From Myxococcales bacterium (GTDB taxonomy: Bacteria > Myxococcota_A > UBA9042): a stretch of 18,669 bases of DNA. The stretch covers positions 1-18,669 of the forward strand of contig JBBISH010000120.1 in assembly GCA_037441385.1 (NCBI GenBank), in the 5' to 3' direction. This document shows positions 1,291-18,669 of this stretch, one piece after another (position 1 is the stretch's first letter; every line of letters begins with the position of its first letter). Below the pieces are notes generated by a model. It searched no databases, was not told where the DNA came from, and saw only the letters and a program-made list of their open reading frames with translations. The position numbers and the translations under genes were made by a program.

Positions 1291-1352
1291 CCGGCGAAGC
1301 TGCAGCGCGCCGGACCGCTGGGGTACGCCGCCGTTGCACGTAGGGAGTAATC

Positions 1353-2033: not shown

Positions 2034-2059
2034 CCGGGCGGGGTGTCGGGTGAGGTAGA

Positions 2060-4471: not shown

Positions 4472-5336
4472 GGGCCACCTCGGCATGAGCCACCTCGGCA
4501 TGAGCCAACTCGGCCGTGCGCTCCGGCGGCCAGTACTGGCGAGCCTTGGCGGCCTCTGCCAGCAATTCGCCCAGCGGCGGAATACGGGCGTCCCACTCCA
4601 GCAGGGTCGGCTTGGGGCCGCCAAGGGCCATCGCCTGGGCGTACAGGTCCCACACGGGCTCGGCAACAGGGTGGTCATGGGTATCGACCGGCAACTGCCG
4701 ATGCCGCGCGTGGCCCGCGATGTGGATCTGCCGCACTCGGTCGTGGGGCAAGGACGCGATGTACTCGGCGGGGTCAAAGCCGTGATGCAGCGCCGACACG
4801 TACACGTTATTGACATCCAAAAGGATTCCACAGTCCGCAGCCTCAACCACTTCGCTAAGAAACTGCCATTCGGTCAGCGTCGACTCGGCGTAGCCCACAT
4901 AGGAGCTCAGATTTTCGAGTAGGAACGGCCGGCCCAGCTCGCCCTGGACGCGCCGGGCCGCCTCGGCCACGTGGCGAACCACCGCAGGCGTGTAGGGCAG
5001 CGGCAACAAGTCGTGGCTGAAGTGGCCATCAACACTGCCCCAGCACAGGTGATCGCTCACCCACGGCACGTCCAGCTCGTTGGCCAGGCCCTTGACGGCC
5101 GCGAGGTGCCCAGGATCCACGCCCTGGGCCGAGCCGACGTACAGCCCAACACCGTGCATGACCAGGGAATAGTGCTGGCGGATGGCGGCCAAGTTGGCGC
5201 GGGCCACACCACCGGCTACCAAATAGTTTTCGCTAATGATCTCGAACCAATCGACGGCCGGGAGCGTGCGCAGAATCTCGGCAATGTGCACGGCGCGCAG
5301 TCCTACGCCGACGCTACGCTGGGCAATGGGCGACAT
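4461..5336 (-). CDS. DUF692 family multinuclear non-heme iron oxidative enzyme (MNIO)
   Basis: GVGLR, DWFEIISENY, MHGVGL, WVSDHLCW, HDLLPLPYT, LLENLSSY, LLDVNNVYV, QIHIAGH, VDTHD and LLEWD motifs. GGAGG RBS before ATG 5336. Confidence 0.96.
   Translation of the reverse strand: MSPIAQRSVGVGLRAVHIAEILRTLPAVDWFEIISENYLVAGGVARANLAAIRQHYSLVMHGVGLYVGSAQGVDPGHLAAVKGLANELDVPWVSDHLCWGSVDGHFSHDLLPLPYTPAVVRHVAEAARRVQGELGRPFLLENLSSYVGYAESTLTEWQFLSEVVEAADCGILLDVNNVYVSALHHGFDPAEYIASLPHDRVRQIHIAGHARHRQLPVDTHDHPVAEPVWDLYAQAMALGGPKPTLLEWDARIPPLGELLAEAAKARQYWPPERTAELAHAEVAHAEVAHAA
4467..4511. repeat. 15-bp tandem repeat x3 at the DUF692/DUF2063 junction
   Basis: GGCATGGGCCACCTC GGCATGAGCCACCTC GGCATGAGCCAACTC. 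Confidence 0.9.
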
Positions 5337-5451
5337 GAGCGGTCCTCCAGAGGGCGCCGCCCACCCCAGACGCTCGATCCGCCTGCCCCTGGCGATGGGC
5401 AAAACGGTCGAGCGTCGGGTGGGTCGTGAGCGGCCGGGTCAGCGGCCGAAA

Positions 5452-5808
5452 CTACTTGCCGTTGCAGCCGTCTTTGCCCGAGCAGTGGCTCTTCTCTTTG
5501 GCCGGCGCGGCGCCCTTGGCATCGGACTTGTCGCCGCCCTTGTCGGCGCCCTTGCAGCTGGCCTTGTCGCCCTTGCCCTTGCACGAGTGCTTGTCGCCGC
5601 CCTTGCAGCTGGCCTTGTCGCCCTTGCCCTTGCACGAGTGCTTGTCGCCGCCCTTGCAGCTGGCCTTGTCGCCCTTGGCTTTGCAGCCGGCCTTTTCGCT
5701 CTTGGGGGCGTCGGCGGCCTTGCCCTCGTCAGCGTGGGCAATCGCGGGAGCCGCGGCCAGTGCACCGGCCATCGCAGCAGTCAGCAAGGTCGTCAGAGTC
5801 TGATTCAT
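5452..5808 (-). CDS. Secreted Cys/Lys/Gly-rich MNIO RiPP precursor (118 aa, 8 Cys, SCKG repeats)
   Basis: GAGGA RBS. Signal peptide MNQTLTTLLTAAMAGALAAAPAIAHA, then KGDKASCKGGDKHSCKG repeats and C-terminal HCSGKDGCNGK. Immediately upstream of DUF692. Confidence 0.88.
   Translation of the reverse strand: MNQTLTTLLTAAMAGALAAAPAIAHADEGKAADAPKSEKAGCKAKGDKASCKGGDKHSCKGKGDKASCKGGDKHSCKGKGDKASCKGADKGGDKSDAKGAAPAKEKSHCSGKDGCNGK
5548..5677. repeat. Perfect 51-bp tandem repeat x~2.5 inside the precursor
   Basis: The unit GCCCTTGCAGCTGGCCTTGTCGCCCTTGCCCTTGCACGAGTGCTTGTCGCC starts at 5548, 5599 and (partial) 5650. Confidence 0.95.
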
Positions 5809-5985
5809 GTCCATGTCCTCGTCGGTCGGCATCGCGACCCGTTGTACTCGGTCCGGCGCCGCTGCCCCTTGCAGCGACTCACCCGCACCCACTGCTACGT
5901 CGCCGCGGGTCGCTGCCGATGAACAGCAGCCGCCGTACTTTTTTGCAGAGGTCGCATTTTTCTTGGACGCAAATGGAGCGCGTCC

Positions 5986-6128
5986 GACGAACCCCACCTG
6001 ATTCACACCTGTCCGGTTTCGGTGCGGTCCCGGTGACCCGATCTGCAACTGGCGAGAATCAGGCATGGATCCCGGTTCAAGGCCGAAGAATTGCCTGTGT
6101 TTTCGATCCGATTGGCACGGAACCGGTA
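5986..6128 (+). mobile_element. Family A MITE-like element, degenerate full-length copy (143 bp)
   Basis: GACGAACCCCACCTGATTCACACCTGT...GGCGAGAATCAGGC...TTTTCGATCCGATTGGCACGGAACCGGTA, with about 11 extra bases and no target duplication. Confidence 0.75.
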
Positions 6129-6185
6129 GGAGATGTCTCATCGCGAATTTCATCGCGAATTTCGGGGTTGTAGTCCTGGCGCACA

Positions 6186-6224
6186 GCCAAACCGATGACG
6201 TTCGCCATCGATCAGGCTGGAGAG
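6186..6224 (+). repeat. Repeat family B right-end fragment
   Basis: GCCAAACCGATGACGTTCGCCATCGATCAGGCTGGAGAG versus GCCAAACCGATGACGTTAGACATCGGTCAGGCTGTATAG at 2486-2524. Confidence 0.7.
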
Positions 6225-7486
6225 TGGGCATGGCTAGACGCCCGCCCCTGGCTCCGGCGAAACGCCGCCTGCAGCGCTGCGGCGTCCAGGTCGGTGTGCG
6301 CGGCCATCCAGGCGAAATCCAGGTCGTCGACCAACGCCGCCATCCGCTGCGTCCACACTTCGCCCAGCTCGCGCAGCCCGGCCTGGTTGTGGCTGGTGCG
6401 GCTCGACTCGGCACTGAGCAGCGGCAGCGACACAAAGGCCAGCGTGAGCAAGCAGGCGAATCGATAGTCGTCGCCCAGGGTTTGTCGCGAATAGTCTTGC
6501 ACGCCCTGGCGCAGCAGCGCGGCGTGGTAGCGGTCGAGCAGCCGCTCGGCGTGAACGCGGCGCACCGCGGGTTCCACGCTCAGCACCAGGAAGTAGGCCA
6601 GGTCGAACACGCCCTTGCCCTTGCGCGCCGCTTGCCAGTCGATGAACACCAAGCGACCGGCGCTGTGGTCGGGCGGGAACAGCAGGTTGCCCACCCGGGC
6701 GTCGCCGTGCAGCACGGTGGTCGGCGCTTGGCCATCGTGGCGCCAGACGGTGCGCAGCAGCTGGCCAAATAGCGCGCGGTCGGGCCCAACGAACTGCTCG
6801 GCCAAGAAGTCGATGACGGCGTTGGGCACGACGGTCAAGAACGCCGTGCGCGGGTCTCGGTCGCGCTGCCAGAAGGCTGCGTGCAATTCAGCCATCGCCT
6901 CGACCACGAGGTCGCACTTCTCGGCCGGACAGCCTTGCCGTTCCGTGACTTCGATCGCGCCGGCCACCCTCTCCATCAGCAAGCACAGATTGCCGCTGGG
7001 GTGCTCGGCGGCAAAGTAGCAGCGGGGCAGCGGCACGTGCCGGTCGCCGGCCAGCTGGCGGTAGACGCCGATTTCCTTGTGGTGGTTGCCCTGCAGGACA
7101 AAGATGGCGTGATCGCGCAAGTGGTTGGCTTTCGGTGCAAATTTAGCGACGACGTGCGCGTCGCGACGATCGCCCGCGGCATCGCGGTAGCCGATGGTCA
7201 CTTGGGCGCACTGCGAGCGAAAGGCGGCGCTGGTCTTGAATGGTTCGACGGAAAACCCTTCAATCGTTGCACCTTTGGGCAGCCCGCCAGCGGCCGTCCA
7301 TATGTCGAGGCACCAGCGTTGGCGCTCGGCCAGCTGGCGCGGGTCGCGGGGAAACGCCAATCGCGGCCGCAGCGTCCGGTCGAGCCAGGAGCTGACCATC
7401 AACACGAACACCGCGACATGGAAAAGCAATTTGACCAAAGCGCTCTCGGCGACCGCGCACTTCGGCCCGCGGTGTGCGGTCAGCAT
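6212..7486 (-). CDS. Aminoglycoside/choline kinase-like phosphotransferase (EcKinase/DUF1679-like)
   Basis: VVAKF, EIGVYR, PLPRCYFA, LLMERV, TVLHGDARVGNLLF, FIDWQ and DLAYFL motifs, plus a hydrophobic N-terminal segment. Start uncertain (ATG 7486 or TTG 7438). Confidence 0.85.
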   Translation of the reverse strand: MLTAHRGPKCAVAESALVKLLFHVAVFVLMVSSWLDRTLRPRLAFPRDPRQLAERQRWCLDIWTAAGGLPKGATIEGFSVEPFKTSAAFRSQCAQVTIGYRDAAGDRRDAHVVAKFAPKANHLRDHAIFVLQGNHHKEIGVYRQLAGDRHVPLPRCYFAAEHPSGNLCLLMERVAGAIEVTERQGCPAEKCDLVVEAMAELHAAFWQRDRDPRTAFLTVVPNAVIDFLAEQFVGPDRALFGQLLRTVWRHDGQAPTTVLHGDARVGNLLFPPDHSAGRLVFIDWQAARKGKGVFDLAYFLVLSVEPAVRRVHAERLLDRYHAALLRQGVQDYSRQTLGDDYRFACLLTLAFVSLPLLSAESSRTSHNQAGLRELGEVWTQRMAALVDDLDFAWMAAHTDLDAAALQAAFRRSQGRASSHAHSPA

Positions 7487-7544
7487 AGCATCGATCGGGC
7501 GGCGATACCGCCGGAGACCGCCGCGTGCGGCATAGGGCCATTTG

Positions 7545-7601
7545 CCGGTTCGGGTCCAAAGCGTGGCTGGGGTTTTCGATCCGATTCGGACGAAACGGCC
7601 A
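7545..7601 (+). repeat. Partial copy (right half) of repeat family A
   Basis: CCGGTTCGGGTCCAAAG...GTTTTCGATCCGATTCGGACGAAAC. Confidence 0.7.
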
Positions 7602-7779
7602 AGATCGGTCCATTGGCCAAAACTCACGGCGGCGACGGCGCCAATTGGCTCCATTGCGTCGAGATCGTTTTTTGCACTTGCGCGCACCAGTCTTTCGGAT
7701 TTTGCCTAAAAACAGCGTGGTTCTAAACCAGCGACCGGAAAATTCTGCGCAAGTCGCGAAAAAATTTCGCGCGGCCGCG

Positions 7780-8808
7780 TTACGGCGCCGGCTCGCCCCG
7801 CTCGGCGCGCCACTCTGCGGCGATCCGCCCCGCCACAAACAGGAACGGAAACGACACGAACAACCCCACAAACCCCAGCAAATGCTCCCAAGCCAGCAGA
7901 CTGAGGATCAGGACAAAGCCGGGCAGCCGCACGTGGCGCGCCGTCAGCCGTGGGTTCAGGTAGTACGACTCGATCTTGTGCAGGACCGCCGTCAGCCCCA
8001 CGAACAGGCCCACGCCCAGACCGCCGCGCACCTGCCACGCCAGGTAGGTCAGCACCGCGCCCGACAGCAGGTTGCCCACGACGGGCACCAGGCTCGACAC
8101 GAAAATCAGCAGCGTCAGCGCGGGGATATGCGGGATGCCCAGCACGACGAGCAGCGGCATCGTCAGGACCGCGTTGCAGGCCGCCACCACCACCTGCAGC
8201 TGCAGCGTCACCACCACGGCGTCGGCCGTGTGCCCCAACCACCGCACCAGCGTGCCTTGCAGCGAGCGCGGCGGCAGCGCCTGAGCAAAGTGCTCGATTT
8301 CGTGGCGCTCCAGCGTGTAGACCACGGCCAAGATCAGCCCGATCACCACGTAGACCAGCGCGTGGCCCAGCGCCGCCAGCCAGCCCACCGCGTTGGCGGC
8401 GTAGTGTTGCGCGCCTTCGACGAGCTTGTGGGTGTCGGGCAAATGTGCTTGCAGCGCCTGGGCTTCGGGCAGCTCGCGCCAGGTGGCAATCCGCTCGGGC
8501 AGGCTCTGCCGCAGCGCCACCACCTGCTGCACGGCCAGACCGGCGCCCAGCCAGCCCAGCACCCCCGCCAGCAGCGCCGCGACGCCCAGCACCAGCCCCA
8601 GCACCGCGCCGCGCTTCCAGCCGAGCCGCGGCTGCAGCCGGTCGAGCAGCCAGCCCAGGGCGCGGGCAAACGCGACAAAAAACACCAGCAGCAGCGCCAG
8701 GTGGCGAAAGAGCAGCAGCGCCCCAACAAACGCCGCCACCGCCAAGGCGCGGTGCGCCGTGGGCTCGGCCAAGAACTCGGCAATGCGATCGCGCGGTTGC
8801 TTGCTCAC
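7780..8808 (-). CDS. AI-2E family transporter (PerM/UPF0118)
   Basis: Multi-TM protein with SLVPVVGNLLSG and LHKIESYYLNPRLTARHVRLPGFVLILSLLAWEHLLGFVGLFVSFP. GTG start at 8808 behind GAGGAG. Confidence 0.92.
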   Translation of the reverse strand: MSKQPRDRIAEFLAEPTAHRALAVAAFVGALLLFRHLALLLVFFVAFARALGWLLDRLQPRLGWKRGAVLGLVLGVAALLAGVLGWLGAGLAVQQVVALRQSLPERIATWRELPEAQALQAHLPDTHKLVEGAQHYAANAVGWLAALGHALVYVVIGLILAVVYTLERHEIEHFAQALPPRSLQGTLVRWLGHTADAVVVTLQLQVVVAACNAVLTMPLLVVLGIPHIPALTLLIFVSSLVPVVGNLLSGAVLTYLAWQVRGGLGVGLFVGLTAVLHKIESYYLNPRLTARHVRLPGFVLILSLLAWEHLLGFVGLFVSFPFLFVAGRIAAEWRAERGEPAP

Positions 8809-9200
8809 GGGCACACTCCTCGCTGCGTAGGGCCGCACCAGAGTAGCGCAGGGCGGAGGTTGGCGTCGAGTCGGCGACATGGACTTGGCGGCGCGCGTCT
8901 CCGCCGTCGGCGTGCAGGCGCGGCGATCAAGGCTCGGGCGATCCAAGCTGTGGAGTTCGAAGGCGAAGTCGACCAGCACCACCTGGCCAACCCGGTTGGA
9001 ATCGCGCAGGACCGCATCGGCCCGCCAGCGCGGTTCGGGTCGCCGCCCGCCCGCAAAATCGCCGGCCAGCGGCGCCTCTTGAGCCTGGACGGGCAGCGCT
9101 GGACGGCAGAGCTGCCAGCAGCAAGCCCAGCGGCAAAATCACCACGGCATGGGGCGTCGCGGGCGTCTTGGGTCGCCGCGGCGGCTAGCGAGGTTGTTGG

Positions 9201-9410: not shown

Positions 9411-9411
9411 A

Positions 9412-10194
9412 CTACACGACCAGCCGCAACTCGCCCCACAGCACCGGCAACCGCGTCAGCGGCACGAAGAACTGCTCGCCGAATGGGTTGAGACGCAATC
9501 CTTCGTGATCACAGGTGAACATTACACCCGTGTACCACACCGAGCTGGCAGCGGGGAGCGGCGCGGCCTGTTCGACCGCTAGCCCCACGGCGGTGGCCGC
9601 AGCGGCCCAGTCACCCAGGGTTCGCAGCGGCGGCAGCGCCCACAGCTCGGCAAAGCGGTCCAGGTCGTTCGCCTCGGCGAGCAGCGGCGATTCGCCGTCG
9701 AGAAACAAGTCCTTGATGTAGATCCGCCCACCCGGCCGAACGACGCGCGCCAGCTCGCCAAGAAGGCGCTCCACCGGAGCCGCGTAACAGGCGCTCTCGA
9801 ACAGCCACGCACCGTCAAAACTCGCGTTATCAAATGGCATTTCGTGGTAGTCGGCGCACTGCACCGCAACCCGCTCGGCCAGGCCGGCGCTGGCCACCCG
9901 CCGAGCTGCGGCGGCCGCTTGCACCATCGAAATGGTGATGGCCTGGACCCGCAAGCCCGGCACTTCGGCCGCGATGTCGCAGGCTGGACCACCCACCCCA
10001 CAGCCGGCGTCGAGCCAGAAGCTGTGCGGCTGCACTTGCGCCCGCTGCGCCAACGCGAGGTTGGTGTCGCGTGGCCCACCGTGGTCGTCCAGCATCGCAG
10101 CCTGGTGGGTGGCGCCCGCCCAACGCTCGAACGTGGGCGACCAGTGGTCGTAGAGGCTGGCGACTTGGCCGGCCCTGGCCTTGCGATCAGTCAT
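9412..10194 (-). CDS. Class I SAM-dependent methyltransferase (sterol/tocopherol/GPP-MT-like)
   Basis: WLDAGCGVGG, ADYHEMPFDNASFDGAWLFES and RVVRPGGRIYIKD motifs. ATGA overlap with the cyclase gene. Confidence 0.93.
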   Translation of the reverse strand: MTDRKARAGQVASLYDHWSPTFERWAGATHQAAMLDDHGGPRDTNLALAQRAQVQPHSFWLDAGCGVGGPACDIAAEVPGLRVQAITISMVQAAAAARRVASAGLAERVAVQCADYHEMPFDNASFDGAWLFESACYAAPVERLLGELARVVRPGGRIYIKDLFLDGESPLLAEANDLDRFAELWALPPLRTLGDWAAAATAVGLAVEQAAPLPAASSVWYTGVMFTCDHEGLRLNPFGEQFFVPLTRLPVLWGELRLVV

Positions 10195-11675
10195 GGCGGC
10201 GCCTCCAGGGCCGCGACCGGTTGCACCAACTGGTGGCGCAACTGGCTCAGCACCGCTTCGTCTTGTGCGTCCAGATCGATGGACCAGATGGGCGTTTGGC
10301 CGGTCAGGCCGCGGACCGCCACGGCACCGCGGTCCCGGCGCACGATGTCGGGGTGCAGGGCGTCGGCGGTCGCTTGATCGATGAGGATCTGCGTCTCGTA
10401 CCGTTTGTTCAGGCCTTCGAGTCGCGAGGCCAGGTTGACCGGCGGCCCGATGCAGGTGAATTCCATCCGATCGGGCGATCCAACCGTGCCCGACAGCACC
10501 GGACCGGTCGCGATGCCGATGCCGATCGCCAGCGGGGTTCCGCCAAATTGTGCCATGGTTTGTGTGGCCTTGGCCATGTCGATGGCTGCAACCACGGCGC
10601 GGGTCACCGAATCGGGCAGCGGCAGCGGCGCGCCAAAGACGGCCATGAAGCCGTCGCCCAAGAACTTGTCCAGCGTGCCATCGTAGGCAAACAGCTTCTC
10701 GACCATTACGGCAAAGAATTCGTTGAGCACGCCGACCGTGGCCTCGGGCTGGAGGCGCTCGGACATGGCCGTAAAATTGCGAATGTCCACAAACAGGATC
10801 GTGGCCGTCTGCTGCTGGCCCCCCAGGCGGCGGCGCCCAGCGTCGCGCATCATGACCTCGATGGCCTGGCGCGGCAGGTACTTGGCCAACTGCTGGTACT
10901 CTTCGCGGACGGCTTGGCGGTGGGCGGTCGCGTGCTCGGCGCGCAGCAGGAGTTGGCGGCTCAGGCGGGCAACCAACGCCACACCAAAGGCGGGCAACAC
11001 CGTGACAAAGATAGAAAATACGGCATCAGGCAGGTAGATGGCCTTGCCGTCAAAAGTGCTGGTCGTGGCCAACGGCACCAAGCCAAGGGTGGCGGTGTGG
11101 GCGAGCAACGCGCCGTTGAGCGCGAGGGTCCACAGACCACCCTGCACGCAAGCCCAGGGAGAAAGGCGCAGGCCGTTCAAGATGTTGAGGACCGCGAAGA
11201 TCTCCAAGACGCCGCCCTGCCAGTACTCCAGGGCGCCGCCATAGTTGCCAAGCACCGCAACGTAGGTAGCGGCAAGGACAAGTTGATCGATGGCAATGCC
11301 GGTCGAGGCCAGCCAGCGTGGCGCCGCGAAGGGCTGGCGTCGCAGCGCATAGGCCGCCACACCCGCCCACAGCAGCCAAACGACCAGTTGGACACGCAAG
11401 ATCGTGTTGGCCTGGGCAGAATTGGCGTCTGGGGCGGCAATCTGCAGGGCCACGCCAAGCGAGGCAAAAGCAAGCCGCGCGCGGTTGAGCCAGCGCTCTC
11501 CGCGGAGTTGGGCGTGATCGCACGCGGCAAGATAGCGGGCCTCGGCGTCGCGCTGGAGCTGCTCGGTGCCGCGCTGGAGCTGCTCGGTGCCACGTTGGAG
11601 CTGCTCGGTGCCACGTTGGAGCTGCTCGGTGCCGCGCGCGCTCCCGCCGAGTGCATCGCCGGCGAAGGTAAACAC
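10191..11675 (-). CDS. Membrane-bound class III nucleotide (probably adenylate) cyclase, ~6 TM
   Basis: ATILFVDIRNFT, LDKFLGDGFMAVFGAP, IGIGIATG and FTCIGPPVNLASRLE. Lys/Thr at the specificity positions suggest ATP. About six hydrophobic N-terminal segments. GTG start 3 nt after the upstream stop. Confidence 0.92.
   Translation of the reverse strand: MFTFAGDALGGSARGTEQLQRGTEQLQRGTEQLQRGTEQLQRDAEARYLAACDHAQLRGERWLNRARLAFASLGVALQIAAPDANSAQANTILRVQLVVWLLWAGVAAYALRRQPFAAPRWLASTGIAIDQLVLAATYVAVLGNYGGALEYWQGGVLEIFAVLNILNGLRLSPWACVQGGLWTLALNGALLAHTATLGLVPLATTSTFDGKAIYLPDAVFSIFVTVLPAFGVALVARLSRQLLLRAEHATAHRQAVREEYQQLAKYLPRQAIEVMMRDAGRRRLGGQQQTATILFVDIRNFTAMSERLQPEATVGVLNEFFAVMVEKLFAYDGTLDKFLGDGFMAVFGAPLPLPDSVTRAVVAAIDMAKATQTMAQFGGTPLAIGIGIATGPVLSGTVGSPDRMEFTCIGPPVNLASRLEGLNKRYETQILIDQATADALHPDIVRRDRGAVAVRGLTGQTPIWSIDLDAQDEAVLSQLRHQLVQPVAALEAPP
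11550..11636. repeat. 21-bp tandem repeat x4 encoding RGTEQLQ
   Basis: (G/A)CG(C/T)TGGAGCTGCTCGGTGCC at 11550, 11571, 11592 and 11613. Confidence 0.95.
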
Positions 11676-11678
11676 CGG

Positions 11679-11948
11679 CTACACGAGCTTGTTGTAATCG
11701 CCCGCCGTCTGCTTGATCACGGCCACCCGGACAACGTCGATGTGGTGGCGATGCGTGTACAAGTAGCTCCGGGCCTCTTCCGGCATCGCTTCGACGCCGT
11801 GTTTGGCGAGGGCCGTGTGGAATTCTTTTTCGTCTGCGGCGCCTTTGATGGCGGCGGAGAAGTCCGGATTGTGGACGAAGTGACCGATGGCTCGGTAGAG
11901 ATGATCTTGCTCTTGGGCCGAAAGCCGCCGGTCGCTGTGCTGGCTCAT
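11679..11948 (-). CDS. 89-aa hypothetical protein; candidate peptide precursor (ComX-/NHLP-leader-like N-terminus)
   Basis: Strong RBS GGGAGGT before ATG 11948. MSQHSDRRLSAQEQDHLYRAIGHFVHNPDFSAAI...TAGDYNKLV. The gene is well supported; the function is inferred. Confidence 0.75.
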   Translation of the reverse strand: MSQHSDRRLSAQEQDHLYRAIGHFVHNPDFSAAIKGAADEKEFHTALAKHGVEAMPEEARSYLYTHRHHIDVVRVAVIKQTAGDYNKLV

Positions 11949-12063
11949 GATCGTACCTCCCAATGTCTCGCGCCCCCAGTCCGTGCCGAACAACTTGCTC
12001 GCACGGCGGAATCGCTCCAAAGAACGTTGGCAACCGTAGCACCACGCGGCTAGCCCTGCAATA

Positions 12064-13071
12064 TCAGCCGCCGCCGCCGGCCCCGTTCCATGAACGATCC
12101 ATGACGGTGGCCAACAGAGCCGCCTCAATGTCGCCCACCCACCCACTCATGGCCCCACGACGGCGCTCTAGGTGGGCCGCCAACTCGTCGTGACCAGCGG
12201 CGCGAGCGGCCTGGGCAGCGGCACCTGCACACTGATCGGCCAGGGCGACGGTGCGACCGACGCCTGCGACCCCACCGCGCGCCGGGACGACGCGGCCTTT
12301 GGCGTCGGGCTGGCCAAGCAGGACGGCCACGTACGTAGTTTGGCCAGCAGCCGCATCCTGTTCCAGATCCGTCGTATCTTCGAATAGTTGATGGGACTCC
12401 ACCAGCCCAGTGATCGCGGCCTGCAGCGGAGCAATTGCCTGCGGACGACCGGCCCGCAGCAGCAGGGCGTCGCTCGCCAGGGTCATCGGCGCGTAGCGGT
12501 CCAAGGTGGCCGACCACGCCGCGGCGGTCCACGGCTCGCGATCGCGACCCAGCCTGGCTTCCAGGGTCATGGCCTCGGCATACGCCGCCCAGGCGGCTGC
12601 CACCCGCGCGGCCATCGCCACCGCTCGCCGCGGTCCAGCAGCCACCGCCAGTTGCGCGGCATGGGCCGTCAGCAGCGCGGAACCAAGCAGCAGCGCCTCG
12701 GCCTCGTCGCCCAGCTGCTCGTCGATGCGGTCGTCGTGCAGGCGCACCGCCAGATAGCCAAGGACCGCGGACAGGGCCGCCGCCCGCACGGCCCGCCGGG
12801 GGACCGAGTGGCCCTGGCGGCGCAGGTAGGCGGCAGTCCAGGCGGGCAAGACGGCAAGCGGCAAAGTCAAGTCGTTCCAGGCGGGTGTAGGGCGCCCCGG
12901 CCGCGGCAGCCGTAGCTGCTCGATCAGCGCGGAGGCTCGCTCGCGGAGGTGCGACGGCAACGAACCCTGAAAATCATGAAGGTTACGAGCGAGATCCGCG
13001 GCCACGGCGGGCCAAGCGGGCTCGGCACACGGGGTCGGCAAAGCGGGGGCCTGGGGCGAAGCGGGCGACAT
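12064..13071 (-). CDS. Class I isoprenoid-synthase-fold enzyme (ComQ-like prenyltransferase or terpene synthase)
   Basis: First Asp-rich motif RLHDDRIDE followed by ALLLGSALL; second motif HQLFEDTTDLEQDAAAGQTTY. All-helical, Ala/Leu-rich. RBS GGAAGGA before ATG 13071. Confidence 0.78.
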   Translation of the reverse strand: MSPASPQAPALPTPCAEPAWPAVAADLARNLHDFQGSLPSHLRERASALIEQLRLPRPGRPTPAWNDLTLPLAVLPAWTAAYLRRQGHSVPRRAVRAAALSAVLGYLAVRLHDDRIDEQLGDEAEALLLGSALLTAHAAQLAVAAGPRRAVAMAARVAAAWAAYAEAMTLEARLGRDREPWTAAAWSATLDRYAPMTLASDALLLRAGRPQAIAPLQAAITGLVESHQLFEDTTDLEQDAAAGQTTYVAVLLGQPDAKGRVVPARGGVAGVGRTVALADQCAGAAAQAARAAGHDELAAHLERRRGAMSGWVGDIEAALLATVMDRSWNGAGGGG

Positions 13072-13431
13072 CGAATCCTTCCGATCGCAAGCGGTTGGCT
13101 CCACCCGCGGCTGACGCGACCTGCGAGTGGGCGGCGCGCCATTGCCGGACCGATCAGGGTCCTGGCACGGGCCGACAAGGCAGGATAAGGCGAGCCCTCG
13201 CGCCGGTCTATACGGCCGGGCCGATGTCGACCGTCGCCAGCTTGGCGCGGGTCAGGTGCTTTGGGGCCGAGTGGGTGGTCACACGCGCGGACGACACGGC
13301 CGACGGGCGCGGACGGTGCGCGAGGATTGGGGAATTCGACCGGCTTGGGGAGGAGCCTGGCAGAGAAGGCCGGGCAAGCCGGGTGCTCGCGGGGCCAGAG
13401 TACAGAACCCCGCAGTGGAGACTCGACCAAA

Positions 13432-13544
13432 TACTGGACAGTCGTTCAGCAATTCGCCCTGCCGGTTGCGTGTCTGGCCCCAAGTGGGGCCCAAGCGAGC
13501 GCCTCCTGCGACTCGCCGCGCCGAGGTCAAAGGTTCGGACGCGC
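13432..13544 (+). repeat. Duplicated upstream segment, copy 1 (pairs with 15792-15904)
   Basis: Ungapped alignment at offset 2360. The first 44 bp are 38/44 identical and include the near-palindrome CTGGAC-AGTC-GTTCAG. Confidence 0.85.
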
Positions 13545-13619
13545 TTGGCGACCCACTTGGCCCGCAGAGCCCAGCACTGCGCCAAACCGGTGGCGTCAAA
13601 CGGCGGTCAGGCGATATAG
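13475..13619 (+). repeat. Repeat family B, most complete copy
   Basis: Starts with hairpin GGCCCC-AAGT-GGGGCC, has internal inverted repeat CCAAGTGGG.../...CCCACTTGG, and ends GGTCAGGCGATATAG. Parts recur at 2330-2381(-), 2418-2524, 6186-6224 and 15837-15904. Confidence 0.78.
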
Positions 13620-13744
13620 TCTACGGTTCTTGCCACGCACGGCTGGCAGCGCACAGTGCACCAGCAGGCCGCAATGTGGAGCGAACTCTGGACCTTGCGT
13701 ACCCGTGCCACAAGCACGGGCCAAGAGGGCCGTGGGAGTCGAGG

Positions 13745-15778
13745 ATGTGTAAGCCCATGTCGGTTCTAGGGATTATCGGCACCCTGGCAGCGCTGCTGGC
13801 GTGCGGCTGCGGCACAAGGCAGACCGGCACGGGCTTTGCTCCGGTGGTGGCCGGCACCGCCTGCACCGCGCCAGGGGCCGCAGTGTGCACCGCGGTCGGC
13901 GCCAACGGCGCGGTCGTGGTTTGTATCAGTGGGCTGTGGCAAGTCGCCCAAGTCTGCGCCGCCGATGGATATTGTGCCGGCAGCGGCAGCACCGCGAGCT
14001 GTGTTGGCGGCGCGGACGCGGCCACGACCGCGGAAACAGCCGCGACGCCGGACAGCGCGACCCCACCCGACACGGCCGCGCCCGTGGACACCGCCAGCAA
14101 ACCAGACGCTGTCACGACCCTGGACTCCACCGCGGATTCGAGCTGCACGTCGGCGAGTCAATGCGACGACGGTAATCCCTGCACCCAAGACAAATGTCTT
14201 TACGGATCATGCAGTTCTGCTTCGGTCGATGGGCCCAACCCCAACTGCAGCGACGGCGACCCGTGCACAGTCGATGGGTGCTACAGCGGCACCTGCAAGA
14301 GCTTCAAAGATGTGCAACTGTGCGCCGCGGACGCCCAGGACGGCGACACGTCCAAGCCTGCCGACACCCTGCAACCCCCCGACGCAGTGGCAACGGACGC
14401 CAGCGACGGCACTGGGGACACCGCGGGCGACGCCAAGGCCGACGCCCTGAAGCAGGATATACCCACGGAAACAGCCCCGGTCGGCGACATCGACGGCACG
14501 ATCGTCGGTGCCACCGAGATGACGGTCGATGTGCCGTCCGGCGCCCTTGTCGGCCAGGACACCCTGGACCCGACCGGCGACGTGGACTACTGGACGTTCA
14601 CGGGCAAGAAGGGCCAGTTGATCGAGATCCTCGTCCAGTCGAACCAGCAGAACAGCCCCTTCGACCCCCTGACCATCGACAGCATGGTCACGCTATACGG
14701 TCCCAACCAGCAGCAGATCGCCTTCAACAACGACGATCCGTCGCTGAATACCAGCGACAGCGAGCTCGTCACGGTGCTGCCGACCGACGGCACCTACTAC
14801 CTCCGCGTGGAAGAGTGCTTCACCTGGGCCAAAGCCCACCCCACGGCCGGCGCCAATTGCGGCGGCACCGCCGACAAGGATAACGTCGACTATTTGATCG
14901 TCGTCTTCGAGCTCAACCCCGCCGAACAAACCAACATCAGCCCCGAGGCCGGCGAGCCCAACGACGGCGTTCCCACCCCTGCGGGCTACCAGCTCGGCAC
15001 CTACAACTACCTGACGACAGTGATGTACGGCGCGCTGTCGAGCGCCACGGACGTCGACAAGTTCGCGTTTACTCCACCGCCGGACTCCAATGTGACTTCG
15101 GGTCGGCCGACTTGTCACTTCAACGTCGGCCCTCCGGGCATCGATGGCAACGGTTCGACGCTGGATGGCCTGATGGCGTCGATCCGTTCGCAGGCGAGCC
15201 CCGGCGTAGTTTTGGCTCAAGTTGATCTGATGAAAGGCGAAATCTCGTTCCCATGCACCCTGGGACAGGCCTACGTCTTGACCCTGGAGCGCACCGCCAC
15301 CAGCACGGTCGGCAGCGCCGACTTCTACGTGGTCTCGCACTTCGTGGGTGGCAGCAATCCGCTGGAGAAGGCCGAGTCGGCCAACAACACCGCTGCCGGC
15401 GCTGAAGCGCTTGCCTCGCAGCCGAACAGCCAAGGCCTACCCAGCTACTACGTGTCAGGTGACTTGATCAATGGCGCCCAAGACGTCGACTACTTCTCGG
15501 TCACGGTGCCCGCGGGCGCCGTGAAGGGTTCGGTCTACTGCGCCGCACAGAAGAGCGGCTCGGGGCTGGTCGGCTTGACCGCCGAGGTCAAGACCGCGAC
15601 CGACGGTGCCATCGCGGGCGGATCGGCGACCGAAGACCCGGCCAAAGGATTGGCGCTCAAGGGCTTGGCGATACCTAGCGGCACCAGCAAGCTGCTGCTG
15701 AAGGTGTCGGCCACTGGGCAGGATCCCGTCAACACTGGCTTTTACTACCTGTGCGGCATGCTGTTGGCCGGGCCCTAG
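13745..15778 (+). CDS. Cys-rich lipoprotein with CDDGNPCT-type repeats and PPC-like (pre-peptidase C-terminal) beta domains
   Basis: ATG 13745 behind GGGAG/GAGG, LLACGC lipobox, CDDGNPCTQDKC and CSDGDPCTVDGC repeats, and three DVD(Y/K)(W/F) modules such as DVDYWTFTGKKGQ...LPTDGTYYLRV. Confidence 0.82.
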   Translation: MCKPMSVLGIIGTLAALLACGCGTRQTGTGFAPVVAGTACTAPGAAVCTAVGANGAVVVCISGLWQVAQVCAADGYCAGSGSTASCVGGADAATTAETAATPDSATPPDTAAPVDTASKPDAVTTLDSTADSSCTSASQCDDGNPCTQDKCLYGSCSSASVDGPNPNCSDGDPCTVDGCYSGTCKSFKDVQLCAADAQDGDTSKPADTLQPPDAVATDASDGTGDTAGDAKADALKQDIPTETAPVGDIDGTIVGATEMTVDVPSGALVGQDTLDPTGDVDYWTFTGKKGQLIEILVQSNQQNSPFDPLTIDSMVTLYGPNQQQIAFNNDDPSLNTSDSELVTVLPTDGTYYLRVEECFTWAKAHPTAGANCGGTADKDNVDYLIVVFELNPAEQTNISPEAGEPNDGVPTPAGYQLGTYNYLTTVMYGALSSATDVDKFAFTPPPDSNVTSGRPTCHFNVGPPGIDGNGSTLDGLMASIRSQASPGVVLAQVDLMKGEISFPCTLGQAYVLTLERTATSTVGSADFYVVSHFVGGSNPLEKAESANNTAAGAEALASQPNSQGLPSYYVSGDLINGAQDVDYFSVTVPAGAVKGSVYCAAQKSGSGLVGLTAEVKTATDGAIAGGSATEDPAKGLALKGLAIPSGTSKLLLKVSATGQDPVNTGFYYLCGMLLAGP

Positions 15779-15791: not shown

Positions 15792-15904
15792 TACTAGACA
15801 TTCGTTCAGTAATTCGCTGTGCCGGTCGCGTGTCTCCCCCCAAGTGGGGCGCAAGAGAGCGCCCACAGCGACTCACCGGGCCGAGTTCGACGGCTAGGAG
15901 GCGC
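15792..15904 (+). repeat. Duplicated upstream segment, copy 2 (includes family B left arm)
   Basis: TACTAGACATTCGTTCAGTAATTCGC...CCCCAAGTGGGGCGCAAG...GCGACTCACCGGGCCGAG. Confidence 0.85.
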
Positions 15905-15989
15905 GGAGAAGGTCCAAATCGATCGGCTCCTTGAGCCTGGCCCGGCGCGGCTGCGCACTGGTCGTCGCCAAGAACTCGCGGAGGTAGAT

Positions 15990-17063
15990 ATGCACAAGCA
16001 CCTGTGGAGTATCAGGATCCTTGCCGCGACATCTGTCTTGTTGGCGGTGGGTTGCGGAACTGGCCAAGCCGGGAGGAATCCTGTAGCGGTAGTGGCCGGC
16101 AGCACGTGCGGCACTCCGGGGGCAACGATGTGCACCTTGGTTGGCACCAACAGCGCCGTCTTGGTCTGTGAGGGCGGGCTGTGGCGGGTCACCCAGGTCT
16201 GTGCGCTTGGTGTGTTGTGCGCAGCCACGGGCAGCTCTTTCGGCTGTGTCGTGGGCCCGGACGCCGTGGACGCCTCTGACACCGCGGACATCTTGGCGGA
16301 CACCGCGACACCAGACACCGCGGCGGCGCAGATTTGCACGTCGGCAGGTCAGTGCAGCGACGGCGACCCGTGCACGGCAGACGAGTGCAAGGACGGAACT
16401 TGCCAGCACTCCGCGGACTGGCAGCTTTGCACGGCAGACGCCGATGGCGGCGACACGTTGGCGACCGACACCACCGGTGTGGACGTCGGGGACGCAGGGC
16501 AAGCGGACTCGCCAGATGCCGCGGAGCCTGATGCGGCGGCGGCCCCGGATGCGGGTCCGCCCAACCCGGATGCCATGGCCGACACAGCGGTCGACGCCGG
16601 ATCGGCGGCCAAGTGTAGCCCCAGTTCGACCGCCGTGGACAACTGGAACCTGTGTGCGCCAGAGCCGGTCAACCCCGGTGGCAAGCTGCATGGCGAGGCC
16701 TGCGCAAGCGATGCGGAGTGCCTGTACGGACGCTGCATGTTTGGCCTTCCGCTGGCCGGCTACGACCCGTCCATCGGCATCTGCAGCAAGAACTGCGGGC
16801 TCCAGGGATCGGCGTTTGCGGCGTGCAGCATCGAAGAAGGCCAGCCCACCGCCAACGATGCGTACTACTGCACCCTGGAGAGGAGCACCCAAACGGGCAA
16901 TACCTATCGCAACGCCAACCTGCCCGTATTCAAGATGTGCGCGCACGGCTGCAAGACGAACGCGGACTGCATCGCGTGGAACCCCGCACTGCCCTCGTGC
17001 CTCAAGCAGTCGACCATCTCGCTGTCGACCAACCCAAAGGGGGTGTGCGCGAAGGTGCCGTAG
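15990..17063 (+). CDS. Cys-rich lipoprotein, N-terminus paralogous to 13745-15778
   Basis: GGAGGT RBS, LAVGC lipobox, shared GCGT.Q.G...VVAG..C..PGA..C...GLW.V.QVCA domain, CSDGDPCTADEC repeat, and a different Cys-rich C-terminal domain. Confidence 0.85.
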   Translation: MHKHLWSIRILAATSVLLAVGCGTGQAGRNPVAVVAGSTCGTPGATMCTLVGTNSAVLVCEGGLWRVTQVCALGVLCAATGSSFGCVVGPDAVDASDTADILADTATPDTAAAQICTSAGQCSDGDPCTADECKDGTCQHSADWQLCTADADGGDTLATDTTGVDVGDAGQADSPDAAEPDAAAAPDAGPPNPDAMADTAVDAGSAAKCSPSSTAVDNWNLCAPEPVNPGGKLHGEACASDAECLYGRCMFGLPLAGYDPSIGICSKNCGLQGSAFAACSIEEGQPTANDAYYCTLERSTQTGNTYRNANLPVFKMCAHGCKTNADCIAWNPALPSCLKQSTISLSTNPKGVCAKVP

Positions 17064-17117: not shown

Positions 17118-18111
17118 GGTGTCAGGTATTGCCACTTGCCACATAGACCACCTTCCTCGGCCGAGGACTATCCGCCAGCGCTTGGATCCACGCCCGCAAT
17201 TGCGGGTCGGCGTGGCGCCGGGCCTCTACCTTGGCGATTCTCTTGGATACCTGTGCATGGCTGCTAGCCAGCGCCGCGGCGATGCGGCCGTGGTCAATCC
17301 CGCAGTGCCGACTCAGCCACCACGCGGCCAGCCAACTGGCGGGATTGCCGCGCGGCCCAAACGCTAGTGACTGCAATTGCTCTATGGTTTGCCCAGTTAC
17401 CGCACTGACCGCCTGCAGGGCGTCGGCCAGTTGCCAGAGCGGTTCAGCAAGATTGGGCACGGCCACCGCGCCGGTGCTGCCCGGTGCCCACAGGCGCTTG
17501 GCGTCGAAGTCCTCGGGCGCCGTCGCCGTGCCGTCGCGCACCGAGTCGAAGTACTGGGAATAGTCGGCCTGGCTGCCAAAACTGCTCTGCAATTCCGCGG
17601 TGGTCAACCAGTCGGGCCGGGGCACCGCGCCGACATACGCGGCGTGGCTGGTCCACAAAGGGCTGTCGAACGGCCCCGCCTCGGCCCGCAGCGGATTCTG
17701 ATGCACATACATCAGCAAATGCCGCCAATACGCCTCGCTGTTGACCAACCTGTTGTGGTAGCGACCGCGAAACAGCGGGCCATCCCAGCGGTTTTGCCGG
17801 TTCAGCCGCCGCGAGAACTCTGCCCCCACATGGCGCATCGCGCGTGGCAGTTCGCCGGTCACCGATTCGACCAGCAGGTGGTAGTGGTTCGGCATCAGCG
17901 CGTAGCCGTGAATTCGCACGCTGAAGCGCGGCAACTCGGCAAGAACCGACAGAAACAGCGCGCGGGCCTCGTCGTCCAAGAAGACGGGCTGCCGGCGCGC
18001 GCCGCGGTTCATGACATGGTGGCGGGCCCCTGGAAAGTCAAGCCGTGGAAGTCGCATGGATTCAAGGCTAGCCCCAATGGGGCTATGTGGCAAGTGGCAA
18101 TACCTGACACC
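17118..18111 (-). mobile_element. 994-bp RAYT-type element bounded by perfect 29-bp inverted repeats
   Basis: GGTGTCAGGTATTGCCACTTGCCACATAG (17118-17146) and its exact reverse complement at 18083-18111 enclose only the transposase. No target duplication is visible. Confidence 0.8.
17122..18057 (-). CDS. REP-associated tyrosine transposase-like HUH/Y1 protein with C-terminal DnaA-like HTH
   Basis: MRLPRLDFPGARHHVMNRG, YALMPNHYHLL (HUH), GPLFRGRY, YVHQNP (catalytic Tyr), WTSHAAY, and a C-terminal helix-turn-helix-like IDHGRIAAALASSHAQVSKRI. Confidence 0.92.
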   Translation of the reverse strand: MRLPRLDFPGARHHVMNRGARRQPVFLDDEARALFLSVLAELPRFSVRIHGYALMPNHYHLLVESVTGELPRAMRHVGAEFSRRLNRQNRWDGPLFRGRYHNRLVNSEAYWRHLLMYVHQNPLRAEAGPFDSPLWTSHAAYVGAVPRPDWLTTAELQSSFGSQADYSQYFDSVRDGTATAPEDFDAKRLWAPGSTGAVAVPNLAEPLWQLADALQAVSAVTGQTIEQLQSLAFGPRGNPASWLAAWWLSRHCGIDHGRIAAALASSHAQVSKRIAKVEARRHADPQLRAWIQALADSPRPRKVVYVASGNT

Positions 18112-18123: not shown

Positions 18124-18669
18124 CTACGGCACCGCCGCACACCCCACACACACGGTCTTGAAGTTGGTCACGTCGCACATATGCACCTTGTTGTCCGTCC
18201 CCAAGCACGACGAGCCCGCCGCAAACGCCGCCGTGCAGCCGGTCTTGGGATTGCAGGCGTCCGCGGTGCAGCTGCAGCCGTCGTTGCACAGCACGGCCGC
18301 GCCACCGGTGCACTTGCCCAGCAGGCACTTGTCGCCCGAGGTGCAGGCGTTGCCGTCGTCGCACGCCAGCGCGTTGTTCTTGTGCGTGCAGGCGCCGGCG
18401 GCGTCGCACAGGTCGTCGGTACAGACGTTGCCGTCGTCGCACGGGATGACCTTGGTCGGGGTGCACACGCCCAGTTGGCAGGTATCGCCCAGGGTGCACG
18501 ACAGCCCGTCGCTGCAGGCGTTGCCGGTGCTCGGCGTGAACACGCAACCGCCGGTCTTGGGGTCGCAGGTGTCGGTGGTGCAGGCGACGTTGTCGTTGCA
18601 GACCTTGGCGGGGCCGGCGCCGCACTTGCCCAGGGTGCACACGTCGTTGAGTGTGCAAGCGTTGCCGTC
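18124..18669 (-). CDS. Cys-rich repeat protein (CDDGNxCTxDxC, Dictyostelium-type repeats), 3' part only
   Basis: Open frame to the window edge (DGNACTLNDVC...), with repeated CNDNVACTTDTC, CDDGNVCTDDLC and CDDGNACTSGDKC. Confidence 0.88.
   Translation of the reverse strand, partial: DGNACTLNDVCTLGKCGAGPAKVCNDNVACTTDTCDPKTGGCVFTPSTGNACSDGLSCTLGDTCQLGVCTPTKVIPCDDGNVCTDDLCDAAGACTHKNNALACDDGNACTSGDKCLLGKCTGGAAVLCNDGCSCTADACNPKTGCTAAFAAGSSCLGTDNKVHMCDVTNFKTVCVGCAAVP

Follow-up and report, generated by a model that had tools for sequence, protein, structure and literature searches.

Organization of the locus

The window analyzed here is an 18,669-nucleotide (nt) stretch of Myxococcales contig JBBISH010000120.1 with a G+C content of ~66%, and coordinates are window positions unless a related locus is named. 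On its minus strand, positions 13071-9412 carry four co-oriented genes, which encode an enzyme that we call Enzyme E, a small peptide, an adenylate cyclase, and a methyltransferase (Table 1). The initial annotation had described these genes with a 3-nt gap between the peptide and cyclase genes and an ATGA overlap between the cyclase and methyltransferase genes, and the coordinates and the sequence bear out both. A GTG at 13104 provides an alternative start for Enzyme E, giving a protein of 346 amino acids (aa). The exact 3-nt spacing depends on the cyclase start at 11675, since this start has no clear ribosome-binding site and the first 44 residues of the cyclase are absent from its orthologs. 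In the region 8800-13400, no promoter-like site (0.4 expected) and no terminator-like site (3.3 expected) was detected; with no site of either kind, the scan is silent on the transcript ends.

Predicted fold and motifs of Enzyme E

A word-indexed search of 5.8 billion proteins recovered six relatives of Enzyme E with 39-47% identity, none of them named beyond 'hypothetical protein'. In a full HMMER profile pass over 1.84 billion representatives, the E profile matches 1558 representative clusters at E ≤ 0.001, 605 at E ≤ 1e-10, and 108 at E ≤ 1e-30. When the single sequence of Enzyme E was searched with phmmer against the Protein Data Bank (PDB), only a meaningless aldolase match (E = 0.17) was returned. 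The profile of 20 aligned family members matches polyprenyl synthetase 4lob (E = 4.1e-4) and hexaprenyl synthase 4jxy (E = 0.021), and both Asp motifs are in register in this alignment, the first on VHDDVVDE and the second on AFQIIDDILD. The AlphaFold model calculated from the same 20-sequence alignment is all-helical (pLDDT 90.3, pTM 0.89). In a Foldseek search of the PDB with this model, the top 50 matches are nearly all trans-isoprenyl diphosphate synthases producing farnesyl (FPP), geranylgeranyl (GGPP), or polyprenyl diphosphate (TMq 0.55-0.62), and the best match is 3lvs_B (E = 1.1e-4, TMq 0.61). The nearest ESM Atlas clusters contain unnamed Myxococcota proteins, a 'class 1 isoprenoid biosynthesis enzyme', and, in one case, PF00348 in 47% of members; they agree with the fold assignment and add nothing more. 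Judging from the profile and the model, Enzyme E represents a sizeable, so far unmodeled family with a predicted class I isoprenoid synthase fold, whose nearest neighbors are the trans-isoprenyl diphosphate synthases.

Invariant residues were read from the alignment of the 20 family members. The first Asp-rich motif consists of D113, D114, D117, and E118 (DDxxD followed by Glu), and D113, D114, and D117 are invariant in all 20 sequences. In the second motif, Q228, D232, D235, and D239 are invariant, as are G105, Y106, V109, and R110 elsewhere. Position 231, where chain-length synthases have the first Asp of the second motif, varies among Glu, Thr, Ala, His, and Asp. None of the Lys residues is invariant among the 20 aligned sequences. 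Since the family has no invariant Lys for the isopentenyl-diphosphate-binding Lys/Arg motifs, and since PF00348 is not matched, a role of Enzyme E as a chain elongator is disfavored. A squalene/phytoene synthase, which the motifs of Enzyme E had suggested, was considered and rejected: chain-length synthases top both the profile and the fold searches, and one of the 148 best relatives of Enzyme E has a sub-threshold SQS_PSY match.

The ComQ-type peptide prenyltransferases, among them ComQ, PalQ, StheQ, and the P domain of ChrPC, offer a comparison for the second motif. StheQ is described with a degenerate second motif in which a Gln stands one turn ahead (Q212, N215, D216, D219; bioRxiv 10.64898/2026.08.29.745113), and PalQ with a Q197, D200, D204 arrangement (PMC10853753). 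As compared with these published descriptions, the Q-x-x-x-D-x-x-D sequence of Enzyme E matches the 'pseudo-second motif' of StheQ and the arrangement of PalQ. The Gln before the second Asp motif does not discriminate peptide prenyltransferases, since canonical chain-length synthases also have it.

The E domain also occurs in other contexts. It is fused to a radical SAM domain in P0152 (691 aa) and has an extra half without assignment in P0050 (702 aa), and the distant relative P0025 (442 aa) carries an N-terminal TOTE-system primase-like domain.

A leader-type peptide downstream of Enzyme E

One scan of GTDB genomes yielded 16 related loci (L001-L016), which come mostly from metagenome-assembled genomes (MAGs) labeled Myxococcota or Deltaproteobacteria; L004, L015, and L016 are from Actinomycetota, and some genome labels look unreliable. 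In 11 of the 17 places formed by the window and these loci (the window, L002, L003, L004, L006, L007, L008, L009, L013, L015, and L016), an ATG-started open reading frame (ORF) of 70-89 aa lies 15-129 nt after the stop codon of the E gene. L001 was left unscored: its contig ends 254 nt after E, with no recognizable peptide-like ORF in that stretch. A purine-rich GGAG-type sequence directly precedes the ATG in all 12 peptide genes. L016 carries two tandem, diverged peptide copies after one E gene, and its methyltransferase gene overlaps the end of the second copy.

The word-indexed search with the window peptide recovered only the peptide itself. In BLASTP, it matches the syntenic L003 peptide with an E-value of 4e-4, and its identity to the L002 and L003 peptides is 24-26%. 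These three peptides alone share a GDxNxLV tail (...AGDYNKLV in the window). The L002 and L003 peptides are matched at 8e-4 by a hidden Markov model (HMM) built only from the L015 and L016 (Acidimicrobiia) peptides, which also recognizes the Os1348-type peptides, with E-values from 9e-9 to 1e-4. Among the latter, the peptides of L007, L008, L009, and L013 pass the 40-bit cut-off of NF038399 (Os1348 family, NHLP clan) with 50.9-75.9 bits, and those of L009 (54.7 bits) and L013 (52.6 bits) also pass the 48-bit cut-off of PF14407 (Frankia_peptide). The window peptide is tied to these family members through the chain of intermediates formed by L003 and the L015/L016 HMM. The joint profile of nine aligned peptides matches nitrile hydratase alpha at 0.0029 and 6lk7 at 0.0032; 6lk7 is an 85-aa chain labeled nitrile hydratase alpha chain in the PDB, which we take to be Os1348 on account of its length and label. 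From these sequence comparisons, the 89-aa peptide appears to be a divergent leader-type protein that belongs distantly to the NHLP clan (Os1348/Frankia_peptide-like). Since the ORF recurs in position after E, its relatives match established families, and the window copy is linked to them, the 89-aa ORF is not a mere product of chance.

Nearly the whole length of the peptides can be aligned, so that tails of ~5-10 residues are left, and in most peptides a Gly stands 5-8 residues before the C-terminus; that this Gly marks a leader cleavage site is speculation. In an ECOD curation, Frankia_peptide, Nif11, DurB, the ComX leader, and nitrile hydratase alpha share a three-helix group (PMC12353581). 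Literature searches under Franean1_4349 and PF14407 returned nothing on this system.

The prediction of an E-peptide complex used the 20-sequence E alignment and a peptide alignment as inputs, with three runs and three controls. The co-fold score is 0.47 (runs 0.67, 0.47, and 0.46), and the best of the three controls scores 0.00. The runs share at least 61% of their contacts, with a partner pLDDT of at least 70. Of the 157 solved complexes in the calibration, 116 reached the mark, as did 2 of 215 mismatched pairs, and scores of 0.60 or lower hold only 18 of the 157 solved complexes along with both passing mismatches. The co-folded model may also be a memory of PalQ-PalX-like complexes.

The membrane-anchored adenylate cyclase

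The catalytic domain of the cyclase matches PF00211 (9.7e-26, 90.9 bits against a cut-off of 21.9). In the predicted structure (mean pLDDT 76, pTM 0.46), helices at residues 12-80, 87-113, 120-143, 147-171, 173-197, and 215-264 precede an alpha/beta domain, and the hydropathy profile contains five clear hydrophobic segments and one weak segment. Foldseek aligns the model with cyclase domains at TMt ~0.8 and with full-length Rv1625c/Cya (7yzk) over 425 columns. Asp297, Lys337, Asp341, Asn414, and Arg418 are invariant in all eight sequences compared; presumably, Asp297 and Asp341 bind metal, Lys337 selects adenine, and Asn414 and Arg418 act on the transition state.

The membrane domain of the cyclase matches no family model. 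A word-indexed search with residues 45-250 found only four relatives besides the protein itself, all of them with PF00211, and this rarity resembles that of the E subclade (six relatives). Within the membrane domain, the polar residues N85, N90, Q96, R112, W121, D130, N144, E150, Y151, R170, and S172 are invariant across the eight sequences and are thus kept among orthologs that are only 35% identical. The cytoplasmic N-terminal tail contains four copies of GTEQLQR, encoded by the 21-bp tandem repeat; the first 44 residues, including these copies, are absent from the orthologs in L002, L003, and L013.

The methyltransferase

The last gene of the block encodes a class I S-adenosylmethionine-dependent methyltransferase (Methyltransf_11, 1.3e-17). 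Its best NCBIfam match is geranyl diphosphate (GPP) 2-C-methyltransferase, with 51.3 bits (1.4e-13) against a cut-off of 400 bits. Among the PDB entries, it matches 3bus (1.6e-20), 6uv6 (1.1e-19), MitM (7e-18), and 5gm1 (5e-17), and more weakly the C6-FPP methyltransferase 9tb4 (4.8e-11) and the GPP methyltransferase 4f84 (1.6e-8); the GPP methyltransferase 3vc1 and BezA (7fbh) are also among its relatives. We take 3bus to be RebM and 5gm1 to be TleD, a prenyl C-methyltransferase, although the PDB labels do not say so. By sequence, the enzyme is best described as RebM/GPPMT-like, and its substrate lies beyond an assignment of this kind.

Conservation of the block

The order E-peptide-cyclase-methyltransferase is found again in L002 and L003, both from Myxococcota MAGs, where identity to the window is 44-45% for E, 56% for the cyclase, and 49-50% for the methyltransferase. 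These two loci differ from the window in their flanks, where a formate-tetrahydrofolate ligase and a lamin-tail-domain protein are encoded on opposite sides. Since the same four-gene order is kept between different flanking genes, the block is more than a chance arrangement. Downstream of the methyltransferase gene, also on the minus strand, the window encodes an AI-2E-family transporter and an EcKL/APH-like kinase; these were left out of the unit because tblastn found them in none of the 16 loci.

In the other loci, the composition of the block varies around the E-peptide pair. L013 has the order E, peptide, a 567-aa protein, and the orthologous membrane cyclase. In L015 and L016 (Acidimicrobiia), a divergent STAND protein with a cyclase domain is followed by E, the peptide gene or genes, and the methyltransferase. 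L004 has a STAND-LuxR protein just upstream of E, and L006, L007, and L008 have convergent STAND Ser/Thr kinases. A signaling protein thus stands beside the E-peptide pair in 10 of the 11 peptide-bearing places: a membrane cyclase in the window, L002, L003, and L013, a STAND-cyclase in L015 and L016, a STAND-LuxR protein in L004, and a STAND-kinase in L006, L007, and L008. An all-against-all BLAST groups these signaling proteins into a single cluster, with their cyclase or STAND modules as the links. L009 is the exception, with no signaling gene and a P450 gene directly after the peptide gene. Methyltransferase orthologs follow the cyclase gene in L002 and L003 and come directly after the peptide genes in L015 and L016.

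None of the five peptide-less loci (L005, L010, L011, L012, and L014) has a signaling protein, and their E proteins form one clade in the E tree (support 100/99). In L011 and L012, E lies between a DUF6851/VCPO_2nd/PAP2 (vanadium-haloperoxidase-like) protein and a conserved 457-509-aa protein without assignment, and the latter also follows E in L014. The peptide-less clade looks like a separate small-molecule use of the E family. In the same tree, the window clade groups with L013 (90/93), and both are membrane-cyclase loci; the identity of L013 to the window clade is 33% for E and 35% for the cyclase. E and the membrane cyclase have therefore been retained together over a long period between L013 and the window clade.

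In several loci, proteins with squalene-hopene-cyclase-type repeats are encoded next to or near the E-peptide pair, with a clearer signal in L008 and L009 and a weak one in L004 and L013. They hint at further isoprenoid chemistry, such as cyclization of a prenyl chain.

Relation to known systems

The nearest described counterparts are peptide-prenylation systems. The PalP-PalX-PalQ system of Paenibacillus alvei consists of a histidine kinase, an NHLP-type precursor, and an isoprene-synthase-like prenyltransferase (PMC10853753). It shares with the block an isoprene-synthase-superfamily enzyme remote from the named subfamilies, an NHLP-type precursor whose folded leader aids binding, and a membrane signaling protein. 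PalQ, to which Enzyme E is likened by description, also has a Gln just before its second Asp motif. PalX ends in the acceptor Trp, whereas the peptides here have no Trp; the pal sensor is a histidine kinase and not an adenylate cyclase, the gene order differs, and the pal cluster has no methyltransferase.

The block resembles ComQ-ComX-ComP (Bacillus subtilis) and StheQ-StheX (Sphaerobacter) in other respects. Their enzymes have, like Enzyme E, the all-alpha trans-isoprenyl diphosphate synthase fold with the first Asp-rich motif and a degenerate second one, and the gene for the small substrate comes directly after that for the enzyme; in Bacillus, a gene for a multi-helix membrane receptor adjoins them (bioRxiv 10.64898/2026.08.29.745113). 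In the same account, ComX and StheX are prenylated on a Trp near the C-terminus, a residue that the peptides here lack. Unlike ComQ, Enzyme E matches no polyprenyl_synt or ComQ model. The block further differs from ComQXP in its predicted cyclic AMP (cAMP) output in place of a two-component phosphorelay, its extra methyltransferase, and its Myxococcota and Actinomycetota hosts. In its anatomy, the block is of the ComQ-ComX-ComP type and comes closer still to PalP-PalX-PalQ.

Two further comparisons concern single components. The Os1348 cluster of Pseudomonas sp. Os17 has in common with the block a precursor from the clan of 70-90-aa folded small proteins that are predicted precursors of peptides made by the ribosome and modified after translation (RiPPs; PMC7726476). 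However, Os1348 is followed by GNAT, peptidase, and SagB-type genes and not by an isoprenoid enzyme, and the window peptide is too divergent for NF038399 and PF14407. Rv1625c/Cya is described, like the cyclase, as joining six membrane helices through a linker helix to a class III domain, and its membrane part is not known to have a ligand (PMC9433096, PMC4821796). Unlike that of Rv1625c/Cya, the membrane domain of the cyclase is unrelated to any family model and was found only with this block in the data examined.

A putative peptide-modification and signaling module

We tentatively propose that the block is a peptide-modification and signaling module built like ComQ-ComX-ComP and PalP-PalX-PalQ, a reading to which we give substantial though less than even weight. 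In this module, Enzyme E would bind an allylic prenyl diphosphate at its DDxxD motif, dock the 89-aa peptide, whose gene lies just downstream, by its folded NHLP-type leader, and move the isoprenoid onto the short C-terminal tail of the peptide. Either the peptide or the prenyl chain would be methylated by the methyltransferase. Reading of the lipidated product would then fall to the six-helix membrane domain of the putatively co-transcribed cyclase, which would convert the signal into cAMP, and in related loci a cytoplasmic STAND protein would take over the sensing role. The data show the coupling of the genes, the predicted fold and the motifs of Enzyme E, the architecture of the cyclase, and the co-conservation. 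The steps of this scheme differ in strength. The 89-aa peptide is probably a substrate of Enzyme E. The reaction of Enzyme E may be prenyl transfer, an assignment that we regard as possible, at somewhat less than even odds. Sensing of the product by the cyclase is doubtful.

The initial annotation had proposed an operon with a ComQ-like enzyme and its peptide, and part of this proposal stands. As to fold, model and profile place Enzyme E with the trans-isoprenyl diphosphate synthases, and structural comparison returns chain-length synthases as neighbors; as to family, no sequence model on hand assigns Enzyme E to ComQ. The peptide appears to be a distant leader-type member of the NHLP clan, a clan grouped with the ComX leader in the ECOD curation (PMC12353581), and enzyme, peptide, and signaling protein prove to be co-conserved. 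Co-folding, suggested as a check, separates the E-peptide pair from its controls, but its score falls in the low range where both mismatched pairs also passed. The statement that no described system has this layout needs correction: PalP-PalX-PalQ, described in 2023 with the parts listed above (PMC10853753), makes the layout less unprecedented. No literature on the E family, the E-peptide pairing, or the cyclase-linked version was found in a survey of main texts, which covered few subscription journals and no supplementary network figures.

A number of observations weigh against the proposed module. Searches of Pfam and NCBIfam with Enzyme E returned nothing at E ≤ 1, not even polyprenyl_synt PF00348; of its 148 best relatives, three have weak matches to isoprenoid families and none matches PF00348 at E ≤ 0.001. 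The window peptide itself matches no Pfam, NCBIfam, or NHLP-clan model, and the hhalign comparison of window-type with Os1348-type peptides (13% probability, E = 0.0021) is too weak to stand alone. The co-fold, which comes without reported contacts, lends weak support. Across the compared loci, the block has neither a conserved leader peptidase nor a conserved dedicated exporter. Since some loci are close kin (L002 and L003; L006 and L008), the signaling neighbors amount to about five independent arrangements, not ten, and Ser/Thr kinases are very common in Myxococcota. The peptide-less sister clade adjoins a vanadium-haloperoxidase-like gene, so the E fold can also serve small-molecule chemistry.

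The acceptor residue is the most serious of these difficulties. Trp and Cys are absent from all 12 peptides, and the acceptor therefore cannot be either of them; the C-terminal tails contain no invariant nucleophile. Peptide prenylation is thus a step that we infer, because the peptides have neither Trp, the sole known acceptor for this enzyme type, nor Cys. According to a 2026 review, all characterized enzymes of the ComQ type target Trp (PMC13290415). In its full form, the proposal is that of a pheromone of Myxococcota and Actinomycetota: an NHLP-type peptide with neither Trp nor Cys would receive its lipid at an acceptor of a new kind from Enzyme E and its relatives, a new family with the isoprenoid-synthase fold, would then be methylated, and would be sensed directly by the cyclase membrane domain or, in sister loci, by STAND proteins through their TPR part, the output being a cyclase, a kinase, or LuxR. 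This form seems quite improbable. If it is true, no six-helix cyclase anchor would have been matched with a natural ligand before, and no peptide quorum signal would previously have been found to act through cAMP.

Alternative explanations

Since the peptides have no Trp, Cys, or conserved nucleophile and all known enzymes of this type target Trp, a terpenoid pathway with a small partner that is not a substrate is a serious rival, although we consider it on balance rather unlikely. Here, Enzyme E would be an atypical terpene synthase or an enzyme converting a prenyl diphosphate, the methyltransferase would C-methylate the prenyl diphosphate or its product, the peptide would act as a chaperone, scaffold, or regulator, and the cyclase would only regulate, as modeled on the 2-methylisoborneol, sodorifen, or benzastatin pathways. 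The best NCBIfam match of the methyltransferase and its relatives 9tb4, 4f84, 3vc1, and BezA suit such a pathway, as do the absence of a conserved tail from the peptides, the peptide-less E clade beside VCPO/PAP2-like genes, and the squalene-cyclase-type repeats near E in L008 and L009 (weaker in L004 and L013). The weak matches in three of the 148 relatives are to terpene-synthase or SQS_PSY models, and one of them, P0153, alone reaches a Pfam cut-off (Terpene_syn_C_2, 24.0 against 23.7 bits). On the other hand, the GPP 2-C-methyltransferase match falls far below its cut-off, and sugar O-/N-methyltransferases (3bus, 6uv6, and MitM) are better PDB matches; Enzyme E matches no terpene synthase model, and its structural neighbors are chain-length synthases and not cyclases. 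Eleven of the 17 places have the NHLP-type gene after E, and in L015 and L016 the methyltransferase gene comes directly after the peptide genes. The 2-methylisoborneol cluster, which comprises a cyclic nucleotide (cNMP)-binding protein, a terpene synthase, and a GPP methyltransferase, likewise combines an isoprenoid enzyme and a methyltransferase with a neighboring link to cyclic nucleotides. In the block, however, a cyclase replaces the cNMP-binding protein and a conserved NHLP-type peptide gene is added. The specific 2-methylisoborneol-like pathway, which the initial annotation had offered as its alternative, is rejected on the methyltransferase score (51.3 against 400 bits) and the missing terpene synthase match of Enzyme E.

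The peptide could instead be a RiPP precursor or scaffold that Enzyme E does not prenylate, with Enzyme E serving as a leader-binding scaffold, as a cyclase acting on a pre-installed group, or as the maker of a cofactor-like lipid, and with an antibiotic-type product in place of a signal. We judge this unlikely, since Enzyme E keeps all metal- and diphosphate-binding Asp residues of an active class I enzyme and a signaling protein accompanies the pair in 10 of 11 places. It draws on the P450 gene in L009, where no signaling gene is present, and on two published accounts: Os1348 of Pseudomonas sp. Os17, which has GNAT, peptidase, and SagB-type genes beside it, is connected with antibiotic activity (PMC7726476), and the leader clan is used by many enzyme classes (PMC12353581). 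An anti-phage module, in which the cyclase would be a Pycsar-type PycC, the STAND proteins Avs-like sensors, and E, peptide, and methyltransferase accessory, has very little to commend it. The cyclase does match PADLOC PycC models (best 1.7e-27), STAND NTPases neighbor E in L004, L006-L008, L015, and L016, and the distant relative P0025 has a TOTE-system primase domain. What the PycC models match, however, is the class III catalytic domain in its generic form, the cyclase carries its own N-terminal membrane domain in the manner of Rv1625c-type sensors, and PADLOC has no match for E, the peptide, or the two downstream genes. Lys337, at what we take to be the adenine-selecting position, argues for cAMP. 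No cyclic-nucleotide-binding effector is found among the scanned window ORFs, and the Pycsar or any other defense reading was rejected for this reason. That the four genes are neighbors by chance, with no shared function, is the least credible explanation: no promoter- or terminator-like site defines the unit and a 115-nt gap follows E, but L002 and L003 have the same order between different flanks, the 3-nt gap and the ATGA overlap couple the last three genes, and the E-peptide pair recurs in Myxococcota and Actinomycetota MAGs.

Possible significance

If the block is a peptide-modification and signaling module, Enzyme E would represent a sizeable enzyme family without a family model that is paired with a leader-type peptide. 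Its reaction would probably reveal new peptide-lipidation chemistry, because the peptides lack the only acceptor residue known for the enzyme type. The six-helix anchors of adenylate cyclases, of still unsettled function, have been proposed as orphan receptors (PMC4821796, PMC9433096). Under the same reading, a cyclase anchor tied genetically to a small biosynthetic block would supply a concrete candidate ligand, and the association of one enzyme-peptide pair with STAND-cyclase, STAND-kinase, and STAND-LuxR proteins would suggest one sensed molecule with different outputs. If the small-molecule explanation holds instead, the block would be a terpenoid pathway that has not yet been assigned.

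Other features of the window

Table 1 Features of the window and of related loci, with their coordinates
Feature	Location	Strand	Remarks
Enzyme E	12064..13071	minus	335 aa; ATG preceded by GGAAGGA
Spacer between E and peptide gene	11949..12063	minus	115 nt; contains the GGGAGG ribosome-binding site of the peptide gene
Small ORF (peptide)	11679..11948	minus	89 aa; ATG preceded by GGGAGG; 115 nt after E stop
Cyclase	10191..11675	minus	494 aa; GTG start, 3 nt past peptide stop
Cyclase architecture	10191..11675	minus	N-terminal tail, six-helix membrane domain, long linker helix, class III catalytic domain
21-bp tandem repeat	11541..11637	minus	4.6 copies, 92% matches, Tandem Repeats Finder score 152
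Cyclase membrane domain	10956..11492	minus	residues ~62-240; from hydropathy and model
Methyltransferase	9412..10194	minus	260 aa; ATG overlaps cyclase TGA as ATGA; translationally coupled to cyclase
AI-2E-family transporter	7780..8982	minus	
EcKL/APH-like kinase	6212..7687	minus	
Cys-rich repeat protein	tail of ORF 5452..6435	minus	signal peptide; from MNQTLTT..., repeated SCKG units
MbnB/TglH/ChrH-family enzyme	4461..5402	minus	PF05114, 2.4e-103
DUF2063 protein	within 3542..4846	minus	
ECF sigma factor	3058..3618	minus	
ECF sigma factor	543..about 1100	minus	C-terminal third of ORF 543..2372
zf-HC2 anti-sigma-type small protein	271..546	minus	
Cys-rich protein	13127..15778	plus	PPC domain and Dictyostelium-type repeat
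Cys-rich protein	15819..17063	plus	
IS200-like Y1 transposase domain	ORF 17122..18093	minus	PF01797, 25.5 bits against cut-off 23
ORF clustering with L001 protein	18124..18669	minus	
Vanadium-haloperoxidase-like gene upstream of E	L011 2-1165; L012 3267-4835		
457-509-aa protein downstream of E	L011 2099-3628; L012 5826-7199; L014 4704-6110		same protein in all three
Tandem peptide copies	L016 8822-9070, 9095-9337		
Squalene-hopene-cyclase-type repeat protein	L008 9134-10072; L009 12415-13659	minus	clearer signal
Squalene-hopene-cyclase-type repeat protein	L004 9225-11285; L013 9202-10905		weak signal

A second, unrelated RiPP-type operon occupies positions 3058-5800 of the minus strand and comprises the Cys-rich repeat protein, the MbnB/TglH/ChrH-family enzyme, the DUF2063 protein, and an ECF sigma factor. 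We assume that this layout is that of bufferin-type copper-binding peptides. Another ECF sigma factor gene is directly followed by that of the zf-HC2 anti-sigma-type small protein; since the sigma domains fill only the C-terminal third of ORF 543..2372, the rest of this ORF is probably non-coding.

On the plus strand upstream of Enzyme E, two neighboring Cys-rich proteins have lipoprotein-like signal sequences and similar N-terminal halves. The Dictyostelium-type repeat found in one of them also fills a 2222-aa protein in L001, which clusters in BLAST with the minus-strand ORF at the end of the window, next to the ORF with the IS200-like transposase domain.

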